Source of the DNA: Sphingomonadaceae bacterium
GTDB lineage: Bacteria > Pseudomonadota > Alphaproteobacteria > Sphingomonadales > Sphingomonadaceae
Length of the DNA stretch: 64,000 bases
NCBI GenBank assembly: GCA_947454135.1
Contig: CANGJI010000002.1
Location: 47,655-111,654 of the forward strand
Direction: 5' to 3'
Positions within the stretch are counted from its first letter, which is position 1; each line of letters opens with the position of its first letter. This document shows positions 38,605-50,908 of the stretch, one piece after another. The position numbers were made by a program, and so were the translations under genes. The notes under the pieces were generated by a model. The model had not been told where the DNA came from. It did not search any database and saw only the letters and a list, made by a program, of their open reading frames with translations.

Positions 38605-39804
38605 TCAGGCAGCGCTGGCGTTGACACCCATGCTGCTGAGGTAGCGGCGGATGTTGCGCGCGGCCTGGCGCAGGCGCTGCTCGTTCTCGACCATGGCGAT
38701 TCGCACATAGCCCTCGCCATCCTCGCCGTAACCGACGCCCGGCGCGACCGCGACTTCGGCATGGGTGAGGAGCTGCTTCGAGAACTCGAGGCTGCCCATT
38801 TCGCGCAGTGCCGGCGGAAGCGGCGCCCAGGCGAACATCGAGGCGCGCGGGCTGGGGATTTCACACCCGGCGCGGCCGAACGCCTCGACCATCACGTCGC
38901 GGCGCTTCTTGTAGAGCAGGCGGTTCTGCTCGACGATATCCTGCGGGCCATTGAGCGCAGCGCAAGTCGCCGCCTGGATCGGGGTGAACGCGCCGTAATC
39001 GAGGTAGGACTTCACGCGGGTCAGCGCCGCGATGAGCTGCTTGTTGCCCACTGCGAAGCCGACACGCCAGCCCGCCATCGAGAAGGTCTTCGACATCGAG
39101 GTGAACTCGACCGCGACGTCCTTAGCGCCCGGGACTTCAAGGATCGAGCGCGTCGGGTTGCCGTCGAAGTAGAGCTCGGAATAGGCAAGGTCGGAAAGCA
39201 CCCAGACCTTGTTCTCCTTCGCCCAGGCCACAAGCCGCTCGTAGAACGCAAGGTCCACCGTCTCGGCGGTCGGGTTCGAGGGATAGTTGACGATCACCAC
39301 CGAAGGGCGCGGCACGCTGTAGCGCATCGCGCGGTCGAGGGCTTCCCAATAGCGCTCGTCCGGCGTTGTCGGCACCGAACGGATCGTTGCCCCGGCGATG
39401 ATGAAGCCGAAGGTATGGATCGGATAGCTGGGGTTCGGCGCGAGCACGACATCGCCCGGCGCGGTGATCGCGGTGGCAAGGCTGGCGAGCCCTTCCTTCG
39501 AGCCCATCGTCATCACCACTTCGTTCTCGGGATCGAGTTCGACATTGAAGCGGCGCGCGTAATAATTGGCCTGCGCCTTGCGCACGCCGGGGATGCCCTT
39601 CGATGCCGAATAGCCATGCGCATCGGGCTTCATCGCCACTTCGCACAGCTTTTCGATGACATGCGCCGGGGGCGGGAGATCGGGGTTGCCCATGCCGAGA
39701 TCGATGATGTCTGCACCGCGGGCGCGAGCGGCGGCCCGCATCGCGTTCACTTCGGCGATGACGTAGGGCGGCAGGCGCTTCATGCGGTAGAATTCTTCGG
39801 TCAC
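38605..39804 (-). CDS. Class I/II aminotransferase (AlaC/YfdZ or LL-DAP aminotransferase-like)
   Basis: KRLPPYV, IDLGMGNPD, NYPSNPT, SDLAY, SMSKTFSMAGWRVGF. GTG start at 39804 (alternative 39819). Confidence 0.88.
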   Translation of the reverse strand: MTEEFYRMKRLPPYVIAEVNAMRAAARARGADIIDLGMGNPDLPPPAHVIEKLCEVAMKPDAHGYSASKGIPGVRKAQANYYARRFNVELDPENEVVMTMGSKEGLASLATAITAPGDVVLAPNPSYPIHTFGFIIAGATIRSVPTTPDERYWEALDRAMRYSVPRPSVVIVNYPSNPTAETVDLAFYERLVAWAKENKVWVLSDLAYSELYFDGNPTRSILEVPGAKDVAVEFTSMSKTFSMAGWRVGFAVGNKQLIAALTRVKSYLDYGAFTPIQAATCAALNGPQDIVEQNRLLYKKRRDVMVEAFGRAGCEIPSPRASMFAWAPLPPALREMGSLEFSKQLLTHAEVAVAPGVGYGEDGEGYVRIAMVENEQRLRQAARNIRRYLSSMGVNASAA

Positions 39805-39951
39805 GGTGGTTTCACTCACTCCTCTGGCTCGGCAAAAGCGCCGATCCAGCACGCCCCTTACGACAATCGTCGTCCCGTGGGAACCGGAAGGGCTCACAAC
39901 CGTCACATTCGGCGCTATAAGCAAATCAGCGCAACAGGGATCGGAACCACA

Positions 39952-41850
39952 ATGGCTGACGCCGCAACACCGCCGGACAACCTTGCCGATACCGCTGTGA
40001 TCGAGGATCTCATGCGTCAGCAGGGTGAAGCGGTGCAGGCGCTGTTCGCCCCGTTCCTCCCCACCGCCTCGACCCCGCCACTCGATCCGGCGGCAATGCA
40101 GCACTGGGCGATGTCAGCCGCGAAGCTGCAGAAGATGTGGCTCGATTTCGGCGCCGAACAGGCGGGCCAGGTCGAGCCGGTCATGGCGCGCATGGCTGAT
40201 CCCGCGCGCTGGACCTCCATGTTCAACGACTGGTACGCCGCGCTCCCCCTCTCGCAGGCTGAAACGCAGGCCAAGCTGTGGGAAGACGGACTGGAGCTCT
40301 GGACCAAGGTGCTCGGCCGCTATGGCATCGGCCCTGCCGCATCCGGAGCCGCCACGCCGGCGGAGGATGCCCAGCTGCCGCGCAATGACCGCCGCTTTGC
40401 CGATCCGCGCTGGGCCGACCAGCCGTGGTTCGCCCTGCTCCACCAGACCTACCTCCTGCTGTCGGAGAAGCTGACGGCGATGGCGGCCGACGTGAAGGGC
40501 CTGCCGCCCGAGCGCCAGCAGCAGATCCAGTTCTTCACCAAGATTGTCGTCGATGCGCTGAGCCCGGCCAACTTCCCGATGACCAATCCCATCGTGATCG
40601 AGCGCACGCTCGAAACGCATGGCGAGAACCTCGTGAAAGGTGCCGAGCACCTCCTTGCCGATATCCGCAAGGGCCAGCTCACCCATACCGATCCCGAAGC
40701 CTTCGAGCTTGGCCGCAACATCGCGATCACGCCGGGCAAGGTCGTCCACGAAACCCCGCTCTACCAGCTGATCCAGTACAGCCCGGCGACCGAGGACGTG
40801 CTCGCCGTGCCGCTGCTGATCTTCCCGCCGTGGATCAACCGTTTCTACATCCTCGATCTCAACCCCAAGAAGAGCTTCATCCGCTGGGCGGTCGAGCAGG
40901 GACTGACGGTGTTCGTGGTCTCCTGGAAATCGGCCGATGCTTCGATGGCCGAGGTGGTCTGGGACGACTACGTGATGGCGCAAGTCGAGGCGATCGACGT
41001 GGTGCGCGAGCGGCTGGGCGTGCCCCAGGTCCACACGATCGGCTATTGCGTCGCGGGCACCACGCTGGCCGCGACCCTCGCGCTGCTGGCGCGGCGCGGC
41101 GCGGCGGACAAGGTGCGCTCGGCCACCTTCTTCACCGCGCAGGTCGATTTCGAGAAGGCGGGCGACCTCAAGTCGTTCATCGACGACAAGCAGATCAAGA
41201 TGCTCGAGAGCCTAGCCACCGACGGCTACCTTGATGGGCGCTACATGGCGGCCACCTTCAACCTGCTGCGCGGGACGGACCTGATCTGGAACTACGTCGT
41301 CAGCAACTACCTGCTCGGCGAGGACTATCCGGCCTTCGATCTGCTCCACTGGAACGGCGACACGACCAACCTGCCGGCCAAGTGGCACAAGGCCTATCTG
41401 GAAGATCTCTACCGCGACAACCGGCTGGTCATGCCGGATTCGCTGGAGATCGACGGCACGCCGATCGACCTCAGGCTGATCGAGACGCCCTGCTACATCC
41501 AGGCCGGGCGCGAGGACCACATCGCGCCGCCCGAAAGCGTATGGAAGCTGACCCGGCTGCTCTCCGGCCCGTGGCGCTTCCTGCTGGCGGGTTCGGGCCA
41601 TATCGCCGGCGTCGTCAATCCACCGGACGCGGGCAAGTACCAATACTGGCTGAGCGATGGCGAGCCCACCACGCTCGCGGAATTCATCGCCGACGCGCGG
41701 GAAACCAAGGGCAGCTGGTGGCCGGACTGGATCGAGTGGATCCGCGCCTCGGACGCGGCCATGGTCCCTGCCAAAGGCAAGCGCGCACCCGGTGGCCGCG
41801 GCGACAAGGTGATCGAGGATGCACCCGGACGCTACGTAAAGGCGCGCTGA
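39952..41850 (+). CDS. phaC: Class I poly(3-hydroxyalkanoate) synthase
   Basis: PPWINRFYILDL, IGYCVAG (catalytic Cys), EDHIAP, SGHIAGVVNPP, SWWPDW. The ORF track start at 38761 is an overextension. Confidence 0.95.
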   Translation: MADAATPPDNLADTAVIEDLMRQQGEAVQALFAPFLPTASTPPLDPAAMQHWAMSAAKLQKMWLDFGAEQAGQVEPVMARMADPARWTSMFNDWYAALPLSQAETQAKLWEDGLELWTKVLGRYGIGPAASGAATPAEDAQLPRNDRRFADPRWADQPWFALLHQTYLLLSEKLTAMAADVKGLPPERQQQIQFFTKIVVDALSPANFPMTNPIVIERTLETHGENLVKGAEHLLADIRKGQLTHTDPEAFELGRNIAITPGKVVHETPLYQLIQYSPATEDVLAVPLLIFPPWINRFYILDLNPKKSFIRWAVEQGLTVFVVSWKSADASMAEVVWDDYVMAQVEAIDVVRERLGVPQVHTIGYCVAGTTLAATLALLARRGAADKVRSATFFTAQVDFEKAGDLKSFIDDKQIKMLESLATDGYLDGRYMAATFNLLRGTDLIWNYVVSNYLLGEDYPAFDLLHWNGDTTNLPAKWHKAYLEDLYRDNRLVMPDSLEIDGTPIDLRLIETPCYIQAGREDHIAPPESVWKLTRLLSGPWRFLLAGSGHIAGVVNPPDAGKYQYWLSDGEPTTLAEFIADARETKGSWWPDWIEWIRASDAAMVPAKGKRAPGGRGDKVIEDAPGRYVKAR

Positions 41851-43592: not shown

Positions 43593-44825
43593 TTGCCTTT
43601 CCTTACCGCCACAGATCGATACATCGCCCGGCTCGTGTTTGTGCCGATGTGCGCGGTTTTCGTGATCGCGGCGTCGCTGCTCGTGCTCGACAAGATGCTC
43701 AAGCTGTTCGACTTCGTGGCGACCGAAGGCGGGCCGGTCAGCGTCGTGTTCAAGATGCTGGCCAACCTCCTGCCCGAATATGCCAGCCTCGCGATTCCGC
43801 TGGGGCTGATGCTGGGCATCCTGCTTGCGTTCCGCCGCCTTGCGACGTCGTCCGAGCTCGACGTCATGCGCGCGGTGGGCCTCTCCTACACACGGCTGCT
43901 GCGCGTGCCCTATCTCTTCACGGTGGTGCTGGCTGCGCTCAACCTCGTGATCGTCGGCTATCTCCAGCCCCTCTCACGCTACTATTACGAGCAGCTCCAG
44001 TTCGATCTGCGTTCGGGCGCACTGGGCGCCTCGATCAAGGTGGGCGAATTCAACACGCTGCAGGATCGCACCGCGCTGCGCGTCGATGCCAGCCGCGACG
44101 AGGGGCGCGACTTGCGCGGGATCTTCGCGCGGATCGCCGCCAAGGATGGCCAGGTTCTCGTGATCTCCGCGCGCGAGGGGCAGTTCTTCGCCAGCCGGGA
44201 GAATCCGGACACGGTGATCCTGCGGCTGTCCGAGGGGCAGATCGTGCAGGATGGCCCGGGCATCACGTCCCCGCGCGTCCTCACCTTCGCGACCCACGAC
44301 CTGCCGATCGACCTGCCCAAGATCGAACAGTTCCGCAGCCGCGGCGATCGTGACCGCGAGTACTTCCTGCCCGAACTGCTCCGCATCGGCTGGAGCAAGG
44401 ATTCGAGCGAGGCGGCCCGCTACCAGAGCATCGCCAGCCTCAACTACCGCCTCGTCGAAGTGGCGATGATGTTCCTCCTGCCGCTGCTCGCCGTCGCGCT
44501 GGCGGTGCCGCCCAAGCGATCGAGCTCCGCGCTCGGCGTGTTCGTCTCGATCGTGATGGTGGTCGCCTACCACAAGGTCAACGAATACGGGCAGGACGTA
44601 TCCAGCCTCGGCCGGGTCGATCCCACCCTCGCGCTGTGGGGACCGTTCATGCTGTTCGCGGCGCTCATCGTGTCGATGTACTGGCGGCTTGCCTATGTGC
44701 CCGGCGGCCAGCCGATCGGCGCGCTGGAAACGGGCTTTGCCAAGATCGCGCGCTCGGTGATGAAGCTGTTCGCCGCCCGCCAACCGCGCCAGATCGACGC
44801 TGCGGGAGCCGTCGATGCAGCTTGA
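43593..44825 (+). CDS. lptF: Lpt transporter permease LptF
   Basis: DRYIAR, LLPEYASLAIP, SELDVMRAVGLS, LAVPPKRS. TTG start; followed by an lptG paralogue. Confidence 0.85.
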   Translation: MPFLTATDRYIARLVFVPMCAVFVIAASLLVLDKMLKLFDFVATEGGPVSVVFKMLANLLPEYASLAIPLGLMLGILLAFRRLATSSELDVMRAVGLSYTRLLRVPYLFTVVLAALNLVIVGYLQPLSRYYYEQLQFDLRSGALGASIKVGEFNTLQDRTALRVDASRDEGRDLRGIFARIAAKDGQVLVISAREGQFFASRENPDTVILRLSEGQIVQDGPGITSPRVLTFATHDLPIDLPKIEQFRSRGDRDREYFLPELLRIGWSKDSSEAARYQSIASLNYRLVEVAMMFLLPLLAVALAVPPKRSSSALGVFVSIVMVVAYHKVNEYGQDVSSLGRVDPTLALWGPFMLFAALIVSMYWRLAYVPGGQPIGALETGFAKIARSVMKLFAARQPRQIDAAGAVDAA

Positions 44826-45915
44826 TTTCTTCCCCTCGCGCACGATCACGCTCTACATCGGCCGCATGTTCGCGATGCGGATCATCGCGGTGCTGCTGAT
44901 GCTCGTGCTCGTGCTGCAGATGCTCGACCTCCTGAGCGAAAGCGGGCGGATTCTGGCGGCACCCGGCAATGGTCAGGGTGAACTGCTGACGTATGTGGGC
45001 CTGCGCGCACCGCAACTTGTCAGCCGCTTCCTCCCCTATTCGGTGCTGCTGGCGACGATCATCACGCTGATGACGCTCAACCAGAACAGCGAGGTCATCG
45101 CGCTCAAGGCGGCCGGCCTCTCCGCGCATCAGGTGCTTGCGCCGCTGTTCCTCGTCGCCGCGATGACCTCGCTCGTCACCTTCGGCTTCAACGAGCGGAT
45201 CGTGGTGCGTTCGTCCGCAACGCTCAAGGCCTGGCAAGCCGTGGACTACAAGGCGATCCCGCGAGACAGCGCGGTGAAAAGCAATGTCTGGCTGCAGGAT
45301 GGCAGCAACCTGCTCTACGCGCGCGCCGTTTCGGGCCAGGGCAACCGGACCCGGATGACCGACGTCAGCTGGTATCGCCGCGATCCGGCGGGCATGGTCA
45401 CCGAGATCGTGCGCTCGCCGGAAGCGACCTTCGCGCGGCCCGGCTGGCATTTCACCAAGCCCAGCGGCTTCGATGTCCAGAGCGCGCGGCGGCTGACTTA
45501 CCCGGCGGATCAGGTCTTCGCCAAGAGCGTGGACCCGGCGCAAGTGGTGATCCGCAAGGCCGATGCCGACGGGGAATCGATCACCCAGCTCTCGCAATCG
45601 ATCGAGGCGATCCGCGGCGCGGGCTATCGCACCAGCGAGCTCGAGGGGAAGTGGTGGCACAAGTTTTCCGGCCCGCTTTCCGCGCTGCTCATGCCGCTGC
45701 TCGGTGCAGTGGCCGCGTTCGGCCTGGCACGCTCGGGCATGCTGTTCGTGCGCGCGGTGATCGGCATGGCCTTGGGCTTTGCCTACTTCGTGGTCGACAA
45801 TGCCGCGCTGGCGATGGGCAACTTCGGCGGCTACCCGCCGCTGCTCGCCGCCTGGGCGCCGTTCTTCCTGTTCCTGCTGATCGGCGAGACGGTGCTGATC
45901 AGGACAGAAGAGTAG
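44815..45915 (+). CDS. lptG: Lpt transporter permease LptG
   Basis: LYIGRMF, QNSEVIALKAAGLS, WHKFSGPL, PPLLAAWAP. Confidence 0.85.
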   Translation: MQLDFFPSRTITLYIGRMFAMRIIAVLLMLVLVLQMLDLLSESGRILAAPGNGQGELLTYVGLRAPQLVSRFLPYSVLLATIITLMTLNQNSEVIALKAAGLSAHQVLAPLFLVAAMTSLVTFGFNERIVVRSSATLKAWQAVDYKAIPRDSAVKSNVWLQDGSNLLYARAVSGQGNRTRMTDVSWYRRDPAGMVTEIVRSPEATFARPGWHFTKPSGFDVQSARRLTYPADQVFAKSVDPAQVVIRKADADGESITQLSQSIEAIRGAGYRTSELEGKWWHKFSGPLSALLMPLLGAVAAFGLARSGMLFVRAVIGMALGFAYFVVDNAALAMGNFGGYPPLLAAWAPFFLFLLIGETVLIRTEE

Positions 45916-46792
45916 CCGCACCCTCATCGCCCGCACGCAGCGGCAGGCGCAGCGCGCGCAGCCCGTGCGGATCGGCTGGCGGCAGCCGCCCGGCGCGAAT
46001 GTTCACCTGAATCGAGGGCAGCAGCAGGCGCGGCGGCGCGAGCGTGGCATCACGCGCCTGCCGCATCGCGACGAAGGCCGCTTCGTCCACGCCGTCATGC
46101 ACATGGACATTGGCGCGGCGCTGCTCGCCGACGGTCGTCTCCCACGCCAAGTTGTCGCGCCCCGGCGCCTTGTAGTCGTGGCAGAGGAACAGCCGGGTCT
46201 CTTCCGGCAGGGCAAGCAACCGGCGGATCGAGCGATAGAGCGCATGCGCATCGCCCCCGGGGAAATCCGCACGCGCGGTGCCGTAGTCGGGCATGAACAG
46301 CGTATCGCCGATGAAGACCGCATCGCCGATCCTGTAGCTGGCGCAGGCCGGCGTATGGCCCGGGGTATGCAGCACTTCGATCGCCAGACCGCCCAGCGCG
46401 ACGATCTCGCCGTCGGAAAGGAGGCGGTCGAAGTCCCCGGCGGCAGGCAGCAGGTCGTCGGCCCCGAACATCGGCGCAAAGGTCCGCTGCACCTCGTCGA
46501 TCCGCGCGCCGATGCCGATCCAGGCACCGGTTCGCGCCGCGATCAGCTTGGCCGCGCTGAGGTGATCGGCATGGGCGTGGGTTTCGAGGATCATGGCGAT
46601 CTGCCAGCCCTGCTCCGCCGCTGCGGCGAGCACCGCATCGACCGAGCCGGTGCTGATCCGTCCCGAGGCCGGATCGAAATCGAGCACCGGGTCGATCACT
46701 GCCGCGGTGCCGCTGGCGGGATCGGCGACCAGATAGGTCACGGTGAAGGTCGGTTCATCGAAGAAGGCGAGAATCGCGGGGCGGGCAGCCAT
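45899..46792 (-). CDS. MBL-fold persulfide dioxygenase (Blh/PDO type II)
   Basis: ETHAHADHLS, HTPGHT, GDTLFMPDYGTARADFPGG, LCHDY. Confidence 0.88.
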   Translation of the reverse strand: MAARPAILAFFDEPTFTVTYLVADPASGTAAVIDPVLDFDPASGRISTGSVDAVLAAAAEQGWQIAMILETHAHADHLSAAKLIAARTGAWIGIGARIDEVQRTFAPMFGADDLLPAAGDFDRLLSDGEIVALGGLAIEVLHTPGHTPACASYRIGDAVFIGDTLFMPDYGTARADFPGGDAHALYRSIRRLLALPEETRLFLCHDYKAPGRDNLAWETTVGEQRRANVHVHDGVDEAAFVAMRQARDATLAPPRLLLPSIQVNIRAGRLPPADPHGLRALRLPLRAGDEGAATLLS

Positions 46793-46815
46793 GGCATGGT
46801 CCTTTCACCGCCTCA

Positions 46816-46852
46816 TATATTAGACATTGCTAAATTAGCAAGTTCTGATATA
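46816..46852. promoter_or_regulatory. AT-rich imperfect palindrome, candidate BigR operator
   Basis: TATATTAGA-CA-TTGCTA-AAT-TAGCAA-GT-TCTGATATA in the 68-bp divergent gap. Confidence 0.7.
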
Positions 46853-46860
46853 CGGACCAT

Positions 46861-47193
46861 ATGCCGATTCACCCCCCTCTCGACACTGCCACGTTCGAGG
46901 CCAACGCCACCATGGTCGCGGCCATCCTGCGCGAGCTGGCCAATCCGCACCGCCTGATGGTGCTCTGCTCGCTCGCCGAGGCTGGCGAAATGAAGGTGGG
47001 AGACATCGCCGAGCGCGTCGGGCTCTCGCAATCGGCGCTCTCGCAGCACCTCGCCCGCCTGCGCGAGGAAGGCCTCGTCGCCTTCACGCGTGACGCGCAA
47101 GTGCTGCGGTACCGGATCGCCGATGCGCGGGTCGAAGCCCTCCTCGCCGCGCTCTACCAGCTCTACTGCGCCCCTGATTCCAGCAAGGACTGA
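46861..47193 (+). CDS. bigR: ArsR-family persulfide-sensing repressor (BigR/SqrR-like)
   Basis: LANPHRLMVLC, SQSALSQHLARLR, LYQLYC: the two-Cys pattern of BigR/SqrR. Confidence 0.75.
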   Translation: MPIHPPLDTATFEANATMVAAILRELANPHRLMVLCSLAEAGEMKVGDIAERVGLSQSALSQHLARLREEGLVAFTRDAQVLRYRIADARVEALLAALYQLYCAPDSSKD

Positions 47194-47197
47194 TGCC

Positions 47198-47722
47198 ATG
47201 ACCCTGCCCCTCATCACCCCCGCCGAAGCCCGCCAGCTGATGGCCGATGGCGCCCGGCTGATCGATATCCGCCCGGGCGACGAATTCGACCGCCTGCGCA
47301 TTCCCGGTTCGGAGAACCGCCCGATCGACCAGCTGGGCCGCGTCGGCGATGCCCCGGCGGTGGTCTATCACTGCCGCAGCGGCATGCGCACCTCGGCCAA
47401 TGCCGCAAGGCTGGCAGCGGCGAGCGATTGCCCGGCCTATCTGCTTCAAGGCGGCCTCGACGCGTGGCGCGCGGCGGGCCTGCCAGTGGCCGAAAACCGC
47501 AAGGCACCGCTGGAGATCATGCGGCAGGTCCAGATCACTGCGGGCGCGCTGGTCGTGCTGGGCGTGGTGCTGGGCGTGCTGGTCCAGCCGGCCTTCTTCG
47601 GCCTCTCCGCCTTTGTCGGTGCGGGCCTGATGTTTGCGGGCACGACCGGCTGGTGCGGCATGGCGAAGCTGCTTGCGGCCATGCCCTGGAACCGGCCGCA
47701 AGGCCCGAACATGGCGGCCTGA
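47198..47722 (+). CDS. Rhodanese plus DUF2892 membrane protein (YgaP-like)
   Basis: LIDIR, HCRSGMR active loop, RQVQITAG, GWCGMAKLLAAMPWN. Confidence 0.85.
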   Translation: MTLPLITPAEARQLMADGARLIDIRPGDEFDRLRIPGSENRPIDQLGRVGDAPAVVYHCRSGMRTSANAARLAAASDCPAYLLQGGLDAWRAAGLPVAENRKAPLEIMRQVQITAGALVVLGVVLGVLVQPAFFGLSAFVGAGLMFAGTTGWCGMAKLLAAMPWNRPQGPNMAA

Positions 47723-47726
47723 TCCC

Positions 47727-48503
47727 ATGCCGCTCGCGATGATCCTGGCAGCACTGGGCTCGGGCGCCGTGATCGGCCTGATCCTCGCCGGGCTCGGCGC
47801 GGGCGGGTCGATCCTGATGACGCCGCTGCTCGTCTATGCGGTGGGCGTGTCCTCCGCGCATGCGGCGGTCGGGACAAGCGCGGTCGCGGTCACGCTCAAC
47901 GCGCTGGTCGGCCTTGCCGGCCATGCCCGCGCGGGGACGGTGAAGTGGCGCTGCGCCGGGGTGTTTGCCGCTTCCGGCGTGATCGGCGCGACTCTCGGCG
48001 CGGAGCTGGGCAAGGCGCTCGACGGCAAGCGCCTGCTCATGCTGTTCGGCCTGCTCATGGTGGTCGTGGGCATCGCGATGCTGCGCCCGCGCCGCGGCGA
48101 GGAACGCGCCGATGTGCAGCTCACCGCCGCCAGCGCAGGCCAGTTGCTGCCGCGCCTCATCCCCATCGGGCTCGGCACGGGTCTGCTCGCCGGGTTCTTC
48201 GGGATCGGCGGCGGTTTCCTGATCGTGCCCGGCCTGATCACCGCGACCGCCATGCCGATGCGCTATGCCTCGGGCACGTCGCTGGTGATCGTCGCGGCCT
48301 TGGGCGCGACGACCGCGACGTCCTATGCGTTGTCCGGTTTCGTCGATTGGCCGCTCGTGGCCGTGCTCGCCGTGGGCGGCGCGGCGGGAGCCGCGCTTGG
48401 CATCAGGGCCGCAGCGCGCCTCGCCAGCCATCGCGGCCTTGTCGAGAAGGGCTTTGCCGCGCTGGTGATCGCGGTCGGCGTCTACGTCGCGCTGGGGCGC
48501 TGA
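47727..48503 (+). CDS. Sulfite exporter TauE/SafE family
   Basis: GLGAGGSILMTP, AVGTS, GFFGIGGGFLIVP, ASGTSL. Confidence 0.88.
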   Translation: MPLAMILAALGSGAVIGLILAGLGAGGSILMTPLLVYAVGVSSAHAAVGTSAVAVTLNALVGLAGHARAGTVKWRCAGVFAASGVIGATLGAELGKALDGKRLLMLFGLLMVVVGIAMLRPRRGEERADVQLTAASAGQLLPRLIPIGLGTGLLAGFFGIGGGFLIVPGLITATAMPMRYASGTSLVIVAALGATTATSYALSGFVDWPLVAVLAVGGAAGAALGIRAAARLASHRGLVEKGFAALVIAVGVYVALGR

Positions 48504-49603
48504 TTCCCGGAACGCTGGCCCATCGTGCTGCGCACCAGCCGGCCGACCAGCGGGAACAGCCCGGCATAGCTTGACCTCGAATAGGTCGAGCCGGTGCCCA
48601 GTTCGGCCGTCAGGCGGCGATGCGCCTCACCCAGCGCGTGATAGGGCACGCTCGGCAGCAGGTGGTGCAGCGCGTGGTAGCGCAGGCCGACCGGGGCCCA
48701 CAGCACCGTGACCAGACCCGGCGGCGGCACGTTGACCGAATCGAGGTACTGCCCCGTCACCGTCATCGTCTCGCCCTCGTTCTCCCACAGATGCGCCACC
48801 AGCGTGCGCGCCTGGTTGAGCACCGCGCCGAGTGCGATCACGGCAATGCCGATGAGGAGCGGGCGCCAACCATGCGTGGCCGACCAGCCGATGAGGAACC
48901 ACGCCCAGGCGGTCGCCCCCAGTTCCTGCCAGAACACCATCCGCGCGAAATCGCCTTCAGGCGGGCGGCGGCGGAAGGCCGGGTTGATCGCCAGCGCCGA
49001 AGCGCGTGCCCAGACCAACCGGCGCAGCGGCGGGATCACGACCCCGAGCGGCGTCAGCACGGCGCATCGCACGAGCAGCGCCACCGGCAGGAGAATCGCC
49101 GTCAGCAGGAACACCGGCAGCGACCACGGCTTCATCAGCGCGAGGGGCAGATATTCGGGGTCTTCCGCCGTCCCGTAGCGGGTGCGCGCATGGTGCAGCG
49201 GATGCACGCCTTCATACATGAACGAAGGCGTGAGCATCGGAATGCCCACCACAAGGTTCCATACGAAGCGGAACCCCGGCAGCGCATTGCGGTGGATATG
49301 CGAAAGTTCGTGGATGAACAGCAGCGCGCGGTAGAACGCGAGCGCCGATAGTACCCCGCACGCCGCCGCTGCCCAGACGTTGGCGGACAGGATCGCCCCT
49401 GCCAGCGCGGCATAGCCGGTGAAGGCGGAGAGCAGCATGTCCGGCCAGAACACGGCCGGCTTTGCCTCAGCCAGATCGCGCGTCAGCTCCACCGCCGCGC
49501 GCAGCATGGCCTTGTCGTCCGGCGTCCGCGCGAGGATCGCCGCGTCTCCGGGCGCAGCGGACAGCGGCTGCGAGGCCGTTTCGAGCGAGGGAGAGGCGAG
49601 CAT
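48482..49603 (-). CDS. Membrane fatty-acid desaturase/hydroxylase family (candidate ceramide hydroxylase)
   Basis: Three His boxes HELSH, HPLHH, HALHH; hydrophobic segments. Confidence 0.8.
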   Translation of the reverse strand: MLASPSLETASQPLSAAPGDAAILARTPDDKAMLRAAVELTRDLAEAKPAVFWPDMLLSAFTGYAALAGAILSANVWAAAACGVLSALAFYRALLFIHELSHIHRNALPGFRFVWNLVVGIPMLTPSFMYEGVHPLHHARTRYGTAEDPEYLPLALMKPWSLPVFLLTAILLPVALLVRCAVLTPLGVVIPPLRRLVWARASALAINPAFRRRPPEGDFARMVFWQELGATAWAWFLIGWSATHGWRPLLIGIAVIALGAVLNQARTLVAHLWENEGETMTVTGQYLDSVNVPPPGLVTVLWAPVGLRYHALHHLLPSVPYHALGEAHRRLTAELGTGSTYSRSSYAGLFPLVGRLVRSTMGQRSGNQRPSAT

Positions 49604-49735
49604 GCGACGTTTCCTGATTGACCCGAGACTGCTTGTCCAGAGACCCTTTGAGCCGTGTCCGCTTGACAATCCGGCCCGGGCCAACGCAGGCAAGCCCTGC
49701 ATTTTTTCCGAATACTTCCAAACAAAGGCAAGATC

Positions 49736-50908
49736 GTGGCCGGAACCCAAGCTACTAGCGGCGAACTAAGCATCACCCCGGTTTCCGGCAAGGCCGATCG
49801 CATTGCCTTTGTGGACTATGCCTACCGCATCAACGCGAACGATCCCGCCTGGGTGCCGCCGCTGCGGATGGAAGCGATCGAGCTCGTCACCCCCGGCAAG
49901 AACCCGTTCTTCGAACATGCCGACGTCCAGTTGTTCCTTGCCCGGCGCGGCGGCAAGATCGTCGGGCGCATTTCGGCGCATATCGATCACCTCGCCGTCG
50001 CGATGGACCCTGTGCAGGGCATGGGCCCGGGCACCGGCAACTGGGGCCTGCTCGAAGCGGAGGACGAGGCGACTGCTCGTGCGCTCATCGCCCGCGCCGA
50101 GGACTGGCTGCGCGAAAAGGGCATGACCCGCGTGCTCGCCCCGCTCTCGATGTCGATCTGGGAAGAACCGGGCCAGCTCGTACGCGGCTTCGAGCAACCG
50201 CCGACGGTCATGATGGGCCACCAGAGCAAGCGCTACCCCGCCTATATCGAGGGCATGGGCTACACGCCTGCCAAGTCGCTGCTCACCTACGAGCTCGACA
50301 TCACGAAGGATTTCCCGCCGCTCATCCAGCGCATCGTCTCTTCGGGCGAGAAGAACCCGCGCATCCGCATCCGCGGCGTCGACAAGAGCAAGTTCGATGC
50401 CGAAGCCAAGCTGATCCTCGATATCCTCAACGATGCCTGGTCGGACAACTGGGGCTTCGTCCCCTTCACCGACACCGAGATCGCCTACGCCGGCAAGAAG
50501 TTCAAACCGATCGTGCGCGAGGATCTCATCATGATCGCCGAGTACGACGGCGAGCCGGTGGCCTTCATGATGACGCTGCCCGATCTCAACGAAGTGCTCA
50601 AGCCGATGGGCGGTTCGCTGTTCCCGTTCAACTGGGCCAAGCTGCTGCTGTGGCTGCGCAAGCCGAAGACCACGACGATGCGCGTGCCGCTGATGGGCGT
50701 GCGCAAGCGGCTGCAGGCCTCGCGCCTTGCCAGCCAGCTCGCCTTCATGATGATCGAGTACATCCGCCGCAATTCGGTAGCGACCTATGGCGCCAGCCGC
50801 GGCGAGATCGGCTGGATCCTTGATGACAACCAGGGGATGGTCGCCATCGCCGATGCCATCGATAGCAAGGTCAACAAGGAATACGTGATCTACGGCAAGG
50901 GCCTCTAG
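49736..50908 (+). CDS. YghO-like tandem GNAT protein, candidate bacterial ceramide synthase (bCerS)
   Basis: DPAWVPPL, KNPFFEH, GKIVGRISA, NDAWSDNWGFVP, LPDLNE, EIGWILDDN. Confidence 0.7.
   Translation: MAGTQATSGELSITPVSGKADRIAFVDYAYRINANDPAWVPPLRMEAIELVTPGKNPFFEHADVQLFLARRGGKIVGRISAHIDHLAVAMDPVQGMGPGTGNWGLLEAEDEATARALIARAEDWLREKGMTRVLAPLSMSIWEEPGQLVRGFEQPPTVMMGHQSKRYPAYIEGMGYTPAKSLLTYELDITKDFPPLIQRIVSSGEKNPRIRIRGVDKSKFDAEAKLILDILNDAWSDNWGFVPFTDTEIAYAGKKFKPIVREDLIMIAEYDGEPVAFMMTLPDLNEVLKPMGGSLFPFNWAKLLLWLRKPKTTTMRVPLMGVRKRLQASRLASQLAFMMIEYIRRNSVATYGASRGEIGWILDDNQGMVAIADAIDSKVNKEYVIYGKGL

Follow-up and report, generated by a model that had tools for sequence, protein, structure and literature searches.

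How a sphingomonad makes its ceramide, hydroxylates the acyl chain and moves the finished lipid out of the inner membrane is the question raised by a block of genes at positions 43593-50908 of the DNA analysed here, a stretch of 64,000 nucleotides (the window) from Sphingomonadaceae bacterium (assembly GCA_947454135.1, contig CANGJI010000002.1). Sphingomonads use glycosphingolipids in place of lipopolysaccharide (LPS); these lipids are CD1d/natural killer T-cell antigens and the basis of the outer-membrane barrier. A sequence-only reading of the window had listed an lptF-lptG pair, a sulfur cassette and a His-box desaturase divergent from a GNAT, and had taken them as a locus of sphingolipid synthesis, modification and transport. 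An open reading frame (ORF) listing and profile searches placed every gene of the block at these positions, and three lines of comparison (orthology, synteny and phyletic coupling) support the interpretation. We consider it probable that the locus represents the bacterial sphingolipid module in the form conserved among Sphingomonadaceae, lptF-lptG / hydroxylase / bcerS, with an inserted passenger cassette. The genome assembly to which the window belongs measures 3.39 Mb and is 93% complete.

The last gene of the block (49736-50908, forward strand) encodes a GNAT of 390 amino acids (aa), the fold being assigned by PF00583 (26.2 bits, cut-off 20.7), with no transmembrane or hydrophobic segment. 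Its nearest homologues were found in Novosphingobium (83-85% identity). In blastp searches neither this protein nor the desaturase had a paralogue in the genome, and a PDB sequence search found relatives for neither of them. The Caulobacter reference gene was located by means of primers EK1199/EK1200, which were used to clone bcerS (ccna_01212) from NA1000 and were taken from the JBC 2024 supplement (PMC11087976). An exact scan with the forward primer returned three records, namely a metagenome-assembled genome (MAG; isolate CAULO1), Caulobacter sp. BE264 and C. vibrioides DSM 9893, and the reverse primer corresponded to the 3' end of the same 384-aa ORF of C. vibrioides DSM 9893 (bcerS, CCNA_01212). 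When Caulobacter bCerS was compared with the genome studied here, the window GNAT was the sole match (41.7% identity over 386 aa, E 3.5e-100); in the opposite direction, the bcerS ORF was the sole strong match in the Caulobacter genome (E 1.3e-94). The sequence-only reading had made its interpretation depend on this GNAT being the bCerS orthologue, and the reciprocal best match of the primer-identified CCNA_01212 upholds it. Its label "YghO-like" is also correct, since E. coli yghO is given, together with Swit_3908 and DRN02_007910, as a homologue of CC_1154 (PMC9386255). By orthology, the window GNAT is the predicted bCerS and would N-acylate the long-chain base. In an evenly drawn sample of alphaproteobacteria, a homologue was found in 44 of 301 genomes, and Spt/AcpR and/or LptF/LptG were encoded near it (flanks of up to ~10 kb on each side) in 33 of 40 loci.

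The enzyme encoded next to it belongs to the FA_desaturase family (PF00487, 95.8 bits) and its gene lies on the reverse strand. The full ORF spans 48482-49750 (422 aa); the start is probably the ATG at 49603, with a Shine-Dalgarno-like AGGAAA upstream, which leaves a gene at 48482-49603 and a protein of 373 aa. Homologues measure 345-370 aa, and conservation begins at about residue 78 of the 422-aa ORF. The His boxes are HELSH, HPLHH and HALHH. In the 373-aa numbering, H98/H102, H134/H137/H138 and H310/H313/H314 did not vary among the 8 and the 32 sequences aligned, nor did H271 and H322. The protein has hydrophobic hairpin regions, and its AlphaFold2 model reached a mean pLDDT of 85.8; the only meaningful PDB neighbours of the model in Foldseek were the FADS-like subunit of the Ycf2/Orf2971-FtsHi complex and AlkB, both generic. 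Database entries of the family are named only "fatty acid desaturase (family protein)".

Compared with C. vibrioides, the enzyme had one match (G301:C4:138018-139073; 47% identity, E 7.5e-98), and the reverse search from this Caulobacter homologue returned the window protein as sole match (46%, E 1.8e-102). Caulobacter has two PF00487 genes, and the homologue is the only member of the family on its contig, C4. The gene fur, which is CCNA_00055 (PMC9393093), lies on the same contig. It is 160 kb from the homologue, a distance of 130-142 crude gene calls where 146 would be expected for CCNA_00202. In addition, dnaN, two small genes, recF and gyrB are found 37-43 gene calls from the homologue; this stretch, which we take to be CC_0156-CC_0160, agrees with the placement, and, as no literature support was found for gyrB being CC_0160, fur replaced gyrB as the anchor. 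Identified by position rather than by accession, the homologue is most probably CC_0202/CCNA_00202. This position and the reciprocal best match are the grounds for regarding the window enzyme as orthologous to the acyl hydroxylase reported to act on sphingolipids. According to PMC11324152, CC_0202, a DesA-family desaturase/hydroxylase, hydroxylates the amide-linked acyl residue of sphingolipids and its loss leads to colistin resistance. Hence the kinship with a Caulobacter ceramide hydroxylase proposed by the sequence-only reading holds for the gene at the CC_0202/CCNA_00202 position, while the name "CerH" which it used for that hydroxylase was not found in a literature search. The window enzyme is accordingly best described as a predicted hydroxylase of the ceramide N-acyl chain, and the C-2 position of the hydroxyl group is suggested by sphingomonad lipid chemistry.

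The phyletic distribution of the enzyme is consistent with this prediction. Of 300 other alphaproteobacterial genomes, ten had strong homologues (33-66% identity), and each of the ten was bCerS-positive (Fisher p = 1.4e-9). Outside Sphingomonadaceae the gene was mostly unlinked to the sphingolipid locus. In a 1.8-Mb non-sphingomonad alphaproteobacterium (L081, G124:C25:5000-24999), a desaturase-family gene of opposite orientation directly follows AcpR-Spt, and LptF-LptG-GNAT lie 5 kb beyond it; here the enzyme is independently linked to sphingolipid genes. Members of the hydroxylase family were also observed in Nitrosomonas/Nitrosospira, Immundisolibacter, Pirellulales/Planctomycetota, Rhodothermales and Methylomirabilales MAGs. 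This wider spread beyond Alphaproteobacteria hints at hydroxylated sphingolipids in those groups.

It must be considered that the enzyme could instead be a true desaturase, placing a double bond in ceramide, either in its long-chain base or in its acyl chain. Some sphingomonad glycosphingolipids have unsaturated long-chain bases, and membership of the Pfam family FA_desaturase would suit such an activity, the motifs being of a kind that does not part hydroxylases from desaturases. An unsaturated d20:1 base may be explained by Spt acting with an unsaturated acyl donor, and the orthology to CC_0202 (46-47% identity, reciprocal best match), whose loss reportedly removes a hydroxyl group, argues for hydroxylation. 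We regard a desaturase as very improbable.

The arrangement of the genes is a conserved one. The desaturase gene was found in 85 of 161 Sphingomonadaceae genomes (61 of 112 genera), and synteny was counted over 80 loci of the family that carry it. The order LptF+ LptG+ Desat- GNAT+ was seen in 67 of these 80. Spt, with or without AcpR, was encoded immediately upstream in 19 of the 67 ordered loci, and ClpS was upstream in most of the others, as it is in the window. Most of the 71 loci carrying both desaturase and GNAT had the two genes head to head with a gap of ~100-300 bp. In the window the corresponding region is 49604-49735, ~132 bp long, which presumably holds the promoters of both the hydroxylase gene and bcerS and may have a regulatory role common to the two; a promoter scan detected no consensus sigma-70 promoter in it. 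Eight desaturase copies of lower identity (51-60%) stood alone, away from lptFG/bcerS, and one genome (G309) had both a locus copy and a lone copy. The locus hydroxylase was missing from the remaining 76 of 161 genomes (51 of 112 genera). The conserved placement of a hydroxylase gene between lptG and bcerS in about half of Sphingomonadaceae is a modest new point.

The same order was recognized in S. parapaucimobilis NZ_CP155753.1, which reads NAD(P)H-binding protein, acyl carrier protein (ACP), class I/II aminotransferase, ATP-binding protein, lptF and lptG, and continues with a "fatty acid desaturase" on the opposite strand and an "N-acetyltransferase". It fits the S. paucimobilis locus tags DRN02_007875 to 007910 (PMC9386255). 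It also predicts, on comparison of gene order, that Swit_3907, situated between LptG (Swit_3906) and bCerS (Swit_3908), would be this desaturase gene. Two further features of the S. parapaucimobilis record were observed: the "ATP-binding protein" between spt and lptF measures 653 aa, and the sphingolipid locus (L207, NZ_CP155753.1 67157-86161), together with proB and obgE, has been deposited as part of a 385-kb "plasmid".

The block begins with the two genes lptF (43593-44825) and lptG (44815-45915), both on the forward strand and both PF03739 members, the first 11 bp of lptG lying within the end of lptF. They encode the only LptF and the only LptG of the genome. Several Caulobacter paralogues were available for comparison, and the best matches were LptF2 and LptG2. 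The window LptF scored 137.7 bits with LptF2, 115.7 with an orphan LptF-like paralogue and 59.9 with the canonical LptF, and the window LptG scored 82 bits with LptG2 and 59.9 with the canonical LptG. In a maximum-likelihood tree, the window LptF fell into the clade of LptF proteins from sphingolipid loci (support 97/94), with the canonical Caulobacter LptF outside; the LptG half was unresolved, with the canonical proteins on long branches and without a broad canonical outgroup. The genes lptF2, lptG2 and bcerS follow one another on one strand in C. vibrioides, so that Caulobacter bcerS adjoins a dedicated lptFG pair, as the sequence-only reading had stated, in the order lptF-lptG-bcerS that is also seen in the window. 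The orphan mentioned above is a third LptF-like gene of C. vibrioides DSM 9893 without an adjacent LptG (G301:C22:42895-44064, L121). It is sister to LptF2 (100/100) and reaches 165 bits with TIGR04407, below the cut-off. No mention of it was found in the accessible part of bioRxiv 10.64898/2026.04.12.717747.

With respect to the cargo of this pair, the genome was checked for lpx genes, as the sequence-only reading had suggested. A six-frame search of the 93% complete assembly did not find lpxC, and no lpxD or lpxA was present beside fabZ, the sole locus checked for these two genes, where the neighbours were bamA, a skp-like gene and L31. A gene for LptB was present (G000:C44:9490-10296; TIGR04406, 351.8 bits, cut-off 240) and adjoins rpoN. 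The preprint cited above reports, from genetics and pull-downs, that LptF2/G2 are essential to Caulobacter whenever it makes anionic sphingolipid and that they bind LptB; it also states that S. wittichii has only a locus-encoded LptFG pair, proposed as a sphingolipid transporter. The evidence gathered here on lptFG (synteny, no lipid A genes found, LptB) agrees with that proposal of sphingolipid export, and the idea itself is therefore one already published for S. wittichii. By analogy, the window LptFG may transport glycosphingolipid.

Adjacency of lptFG to the sphingolipid genes could also be merely historical, the pair being a housekeeping LPS-type permease kept for other cargo or another function. 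The canonical Caulobacter pair scores above the cut-offs of TIGR04407 and TIGR04408 and LptF2/G2 score below them; the window proteins exceed both (LptF 235.4 bits, cut-off 230; LptG 299.9 bits, cut-off 240), which, together with the limited resolution of the tree, would favour such a permease. Against it stand the results of the lpx search (lpxC in six frames, lpxD and lpxA beside fabZ only), which leave no LPS to move, the recurrence of the gene order in the family loci counted above and across many alphaproteobacterial families, and the best matches to LptF2/G2. A purely historical adjacency is thus extremely improbable in our judgement, and transport of sphingolipid by this pair is the reading that we retain.

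Several points must be set against the interpretation of the locus as a module for sphingolipid synthesis, hydroxylation and export. The spt gene is located outside this contig; it lies, with an upstream ACP-like gene, on another one (C6:36355-37909). The scores of the window LptF and LptG above the canonical equivalog cut-offs are accompanied by a modest preference for LptF2/G2 over the canonical proteins, and the LptF/LptG tree is long-branched and built without a broad canonical outgroup. Sequence does not distinguish hydroxylases from desaturases in this superfamily, nor C-2 from C-3 hydroxylation. The role of CC_0202 is taken from PMC11324152, which cites Stankeviciute 2022 for it. Additional doubts arise from the distribution of the enzyme. 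The hallmark status usually given to 2-hydroxy fatty acids in Sphingomonadaceae contrasts with the presence of the gene in only 85 of 161 genomes, and S. paucimobilis, the organism from which P450SPalpha comes, very probably has the desaturase gene as well.

These last two points lead to a different source of the 2-hydroxyacyl group. The fatty acid 2-hydroxylase cloned from Sphingomonas is P450SPalpha (CYP152B1; review PMC10002949), and the acyl 2-hydroxyl group could come from the action of this soluble peroxygenase on free myristate, with the locus enzyme performing another sphingolipid step, e.g., C-4 hydroxylation of the long-chain base. Both the occurrence of the desaturase locus in the S. 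paucimobilis group, which appears to carry it too, and its lack in half of the family would be in line with this explanation. The CYP152-type heme-loop signature was not found in the six frames of the genome, a weak negative, being a search by motif in an assembly that is 93% complete; in addition, PMC11324152 reports that the Caulobacter orthologue hydroxylates the amide-linked acyl chain. On balance, we consider the P450 explanation unlikely, and acyl hydroxylation by the locus enzyme is preferred.

A broader proposal may be advanced tentatively, as a possibility to which we give less than even weight. In the roughly one half of the family that carries the gene, the di-iron enzyme, and not the textbook P450SPalpha, might be the physiological source of the glycosphingolipid 2-hydroxyacyl group. 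It would act at the membrane on ceramide or a precursor of it and would be co-regulated with the ceramide synthase through the shared divergent promoter, whereas the genomes without the gene would rely on another hydroxylase. If this were true, two non-homologous routes to one outer-membrane lipid feature would exist within Sphingomonadaceae. And should P450SPalpha be missing here, and the di-iron enzyme from half of Sphingomonadaceae, the question becomes which enzyme makes the signature 2-hydroxy fatty acids.

Between lptG and the hydroxylase gene, the window contains the 2.6-kb sulfur cassette that had been described after lptFG; it is present as described and turned out to be an insertion rather than a part of the module. 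It encodes, according to profile matches, a Blh-like MBL-fold persulfide dioxygenase (45899-46792, reverse strand), a BigR-like ArsR regulator, presumably a repressor (46861-47193, forward), a rhodanese/YgaP-like protein (within 47090-47722, forward; PF00581) and a TauE/SafE exporter (47634-48503, forward; PF01925). In blastn comparisons, DNA homology to two genomes of the same genus ended at 45915 and resumed at 48518; therefore, the insert corresponds to 45916-48517. The lptG-desaturase gap of those two genomes is 55-86 bp. The outermost genes of the cassette overlap the stop codons of lptG and of the desaturase gene, and the last ~12 desaturase codons are new. No terminal or flanking repeats and no insertion sequence element were seen at the cassette. 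The profile NF040642 matched with 79.4 bits, under its equivalog cut-off, and NF040641 with 347.5 bits over the dioxygenase half only, so that the cassette is, from these scores, probably a family-level relative of the BigR/Blh system and not an equivalog.

A functional link of the cassette to the sphingolipid genes was considered and rejected. Blh, BigR or TauE were found between lptG and the desaturase gene in none of the 80 related Sphingomonadaceae loci, those of the two genomes of the same genus among them, and the same four genes occur on Sphingomonas and Sphingobium megaplasmids with ~70% identity; for these reasons the cassette is regarded as a passenger. It is a recent insertion unrelated to the sphingolipid module, and its chance arrival at this place is a second modest new point.

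The flanks of the block are of housekeeping type, with PhaC, a phasin and ClpS upstream and an AI-2E transporter, an SDF symporter and phosphoglucomutase downstream. The PhaC ORF (38761-41850) would encode 1029 aa and its PhaC_N domain begins at residue 542, which indicates either a long N-terminal extension or a start called too early.

Taken together, the following pathway may be proposed. A soluble bCerS would, as its orthology suggests, N-acylate the long-chain base supplied by Spt/AcpR from the other contig. The four-hairpin di-iron enzyme would hydroxylate the amide-linked acyl chain with O2 and an electron donor, the product in sphingomonads being most likely the 2-hydroxymyristoyl residue of glycosphingolipids. 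Finally, the sole LptF/LptG pair with LptB may take the completed (glyco)sphingolipid out of the inner membrane and pass it to the Lpt bridge, as the genetics and pull-downs of Caulobacter suggest; this cargo is proposed because the organism would make no lipid A. The Blh/BigR/rhodanese/TauE genes would have no role in this pathway, being a portable sulfide/sulfite detoxification unit whose arrival in the spacer between lptG and the hydroxylase gene is presumably peculiar to this lineage.

The locus offers single-copy sphingomonad gene targets for ceramide N-acylation, acyl hydroxylation and inner-membrane extraction. The RefSeq labels of the corresponding genes are only "N-acetyltransferase", "fatty acid desaturase" and "LPS export permease". 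It must be noted that the core biology has already been described in Caulobacter, and the result is therefore an annotation transfer with strong comparative support and not a discovery.

The known systems with which the locus can be compared share some of its traits and differ in others. Caulobacter bCerS (CCNA_01212/CC_1154, the homologue of E. coli BL21 YghO) is, like the window protein, a GNAT-type enzyme of ~385-390 aa without transmembrane segments; the two are 42% reciprocal best matches, and in both organisms the gene is downstream of lptF-lptG in the same orientation. However, Caulobacter bcerS directly abuts lptG2, whereas here and in most Sphingomonadaceae loci an opposite-strand hydroxylase gene intervenes, and in this genome the sulfur cassette additionally separates lptG from bcerS. 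The acyl donor of bCerS would be expected to be C14 here, compared with C16 in Caulobacter. Regarding the hydroxylase, CC_0202 has the same His boxes and the sub-group motif (HEL[ST]H..., NVPPP), and both proteins are confined to bCerS-positive genomes. The Caulobacter gene is far from the sphingolipid locus, while that of Sphingomonadaceae has lptG on one side and bcerS on the other, with a divergent region in common with the latter. P450SPalpha has been proposed to supply the same 2-hydroxyacyl residue of sphingolipids, but it has an unrelated fold, being a soluble heme peroxygenase that uses free fatty acids, and the six-frame motif search, a weak negative, revealed none in this genome.

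The export genes resemble Caulobacter LptF2/LptG2 (CCNA_01214/01213) in family (PF03739), in their place upstream of bcerS and in the presence of LptB. In Caulobacter this pair coexists with a canonical one and falls below the canonical equivalog cut-offs, whereas the window pair is the only one of its genome and lies above them. In being the only LptFG pair of an LPS-free sphingomonad it resembles that reported for S. wittichii. The cassette, in turn, shares its ArsR-type BigR-like regulator, Blh-like dioxygenase, rhodanese and TauE with the BigR-Blh sulfide/sulfite detoxification operon of the Xylella/Agrobacterium type. In contrast to full-length Blh, its dioxygenase has no rhodanese fused to the N-terminus and matches model positions 140-421 only, and, unlike that operon, the BigR/Blh-like cassette of this genome sits by chance inside a sphingolipid locus.

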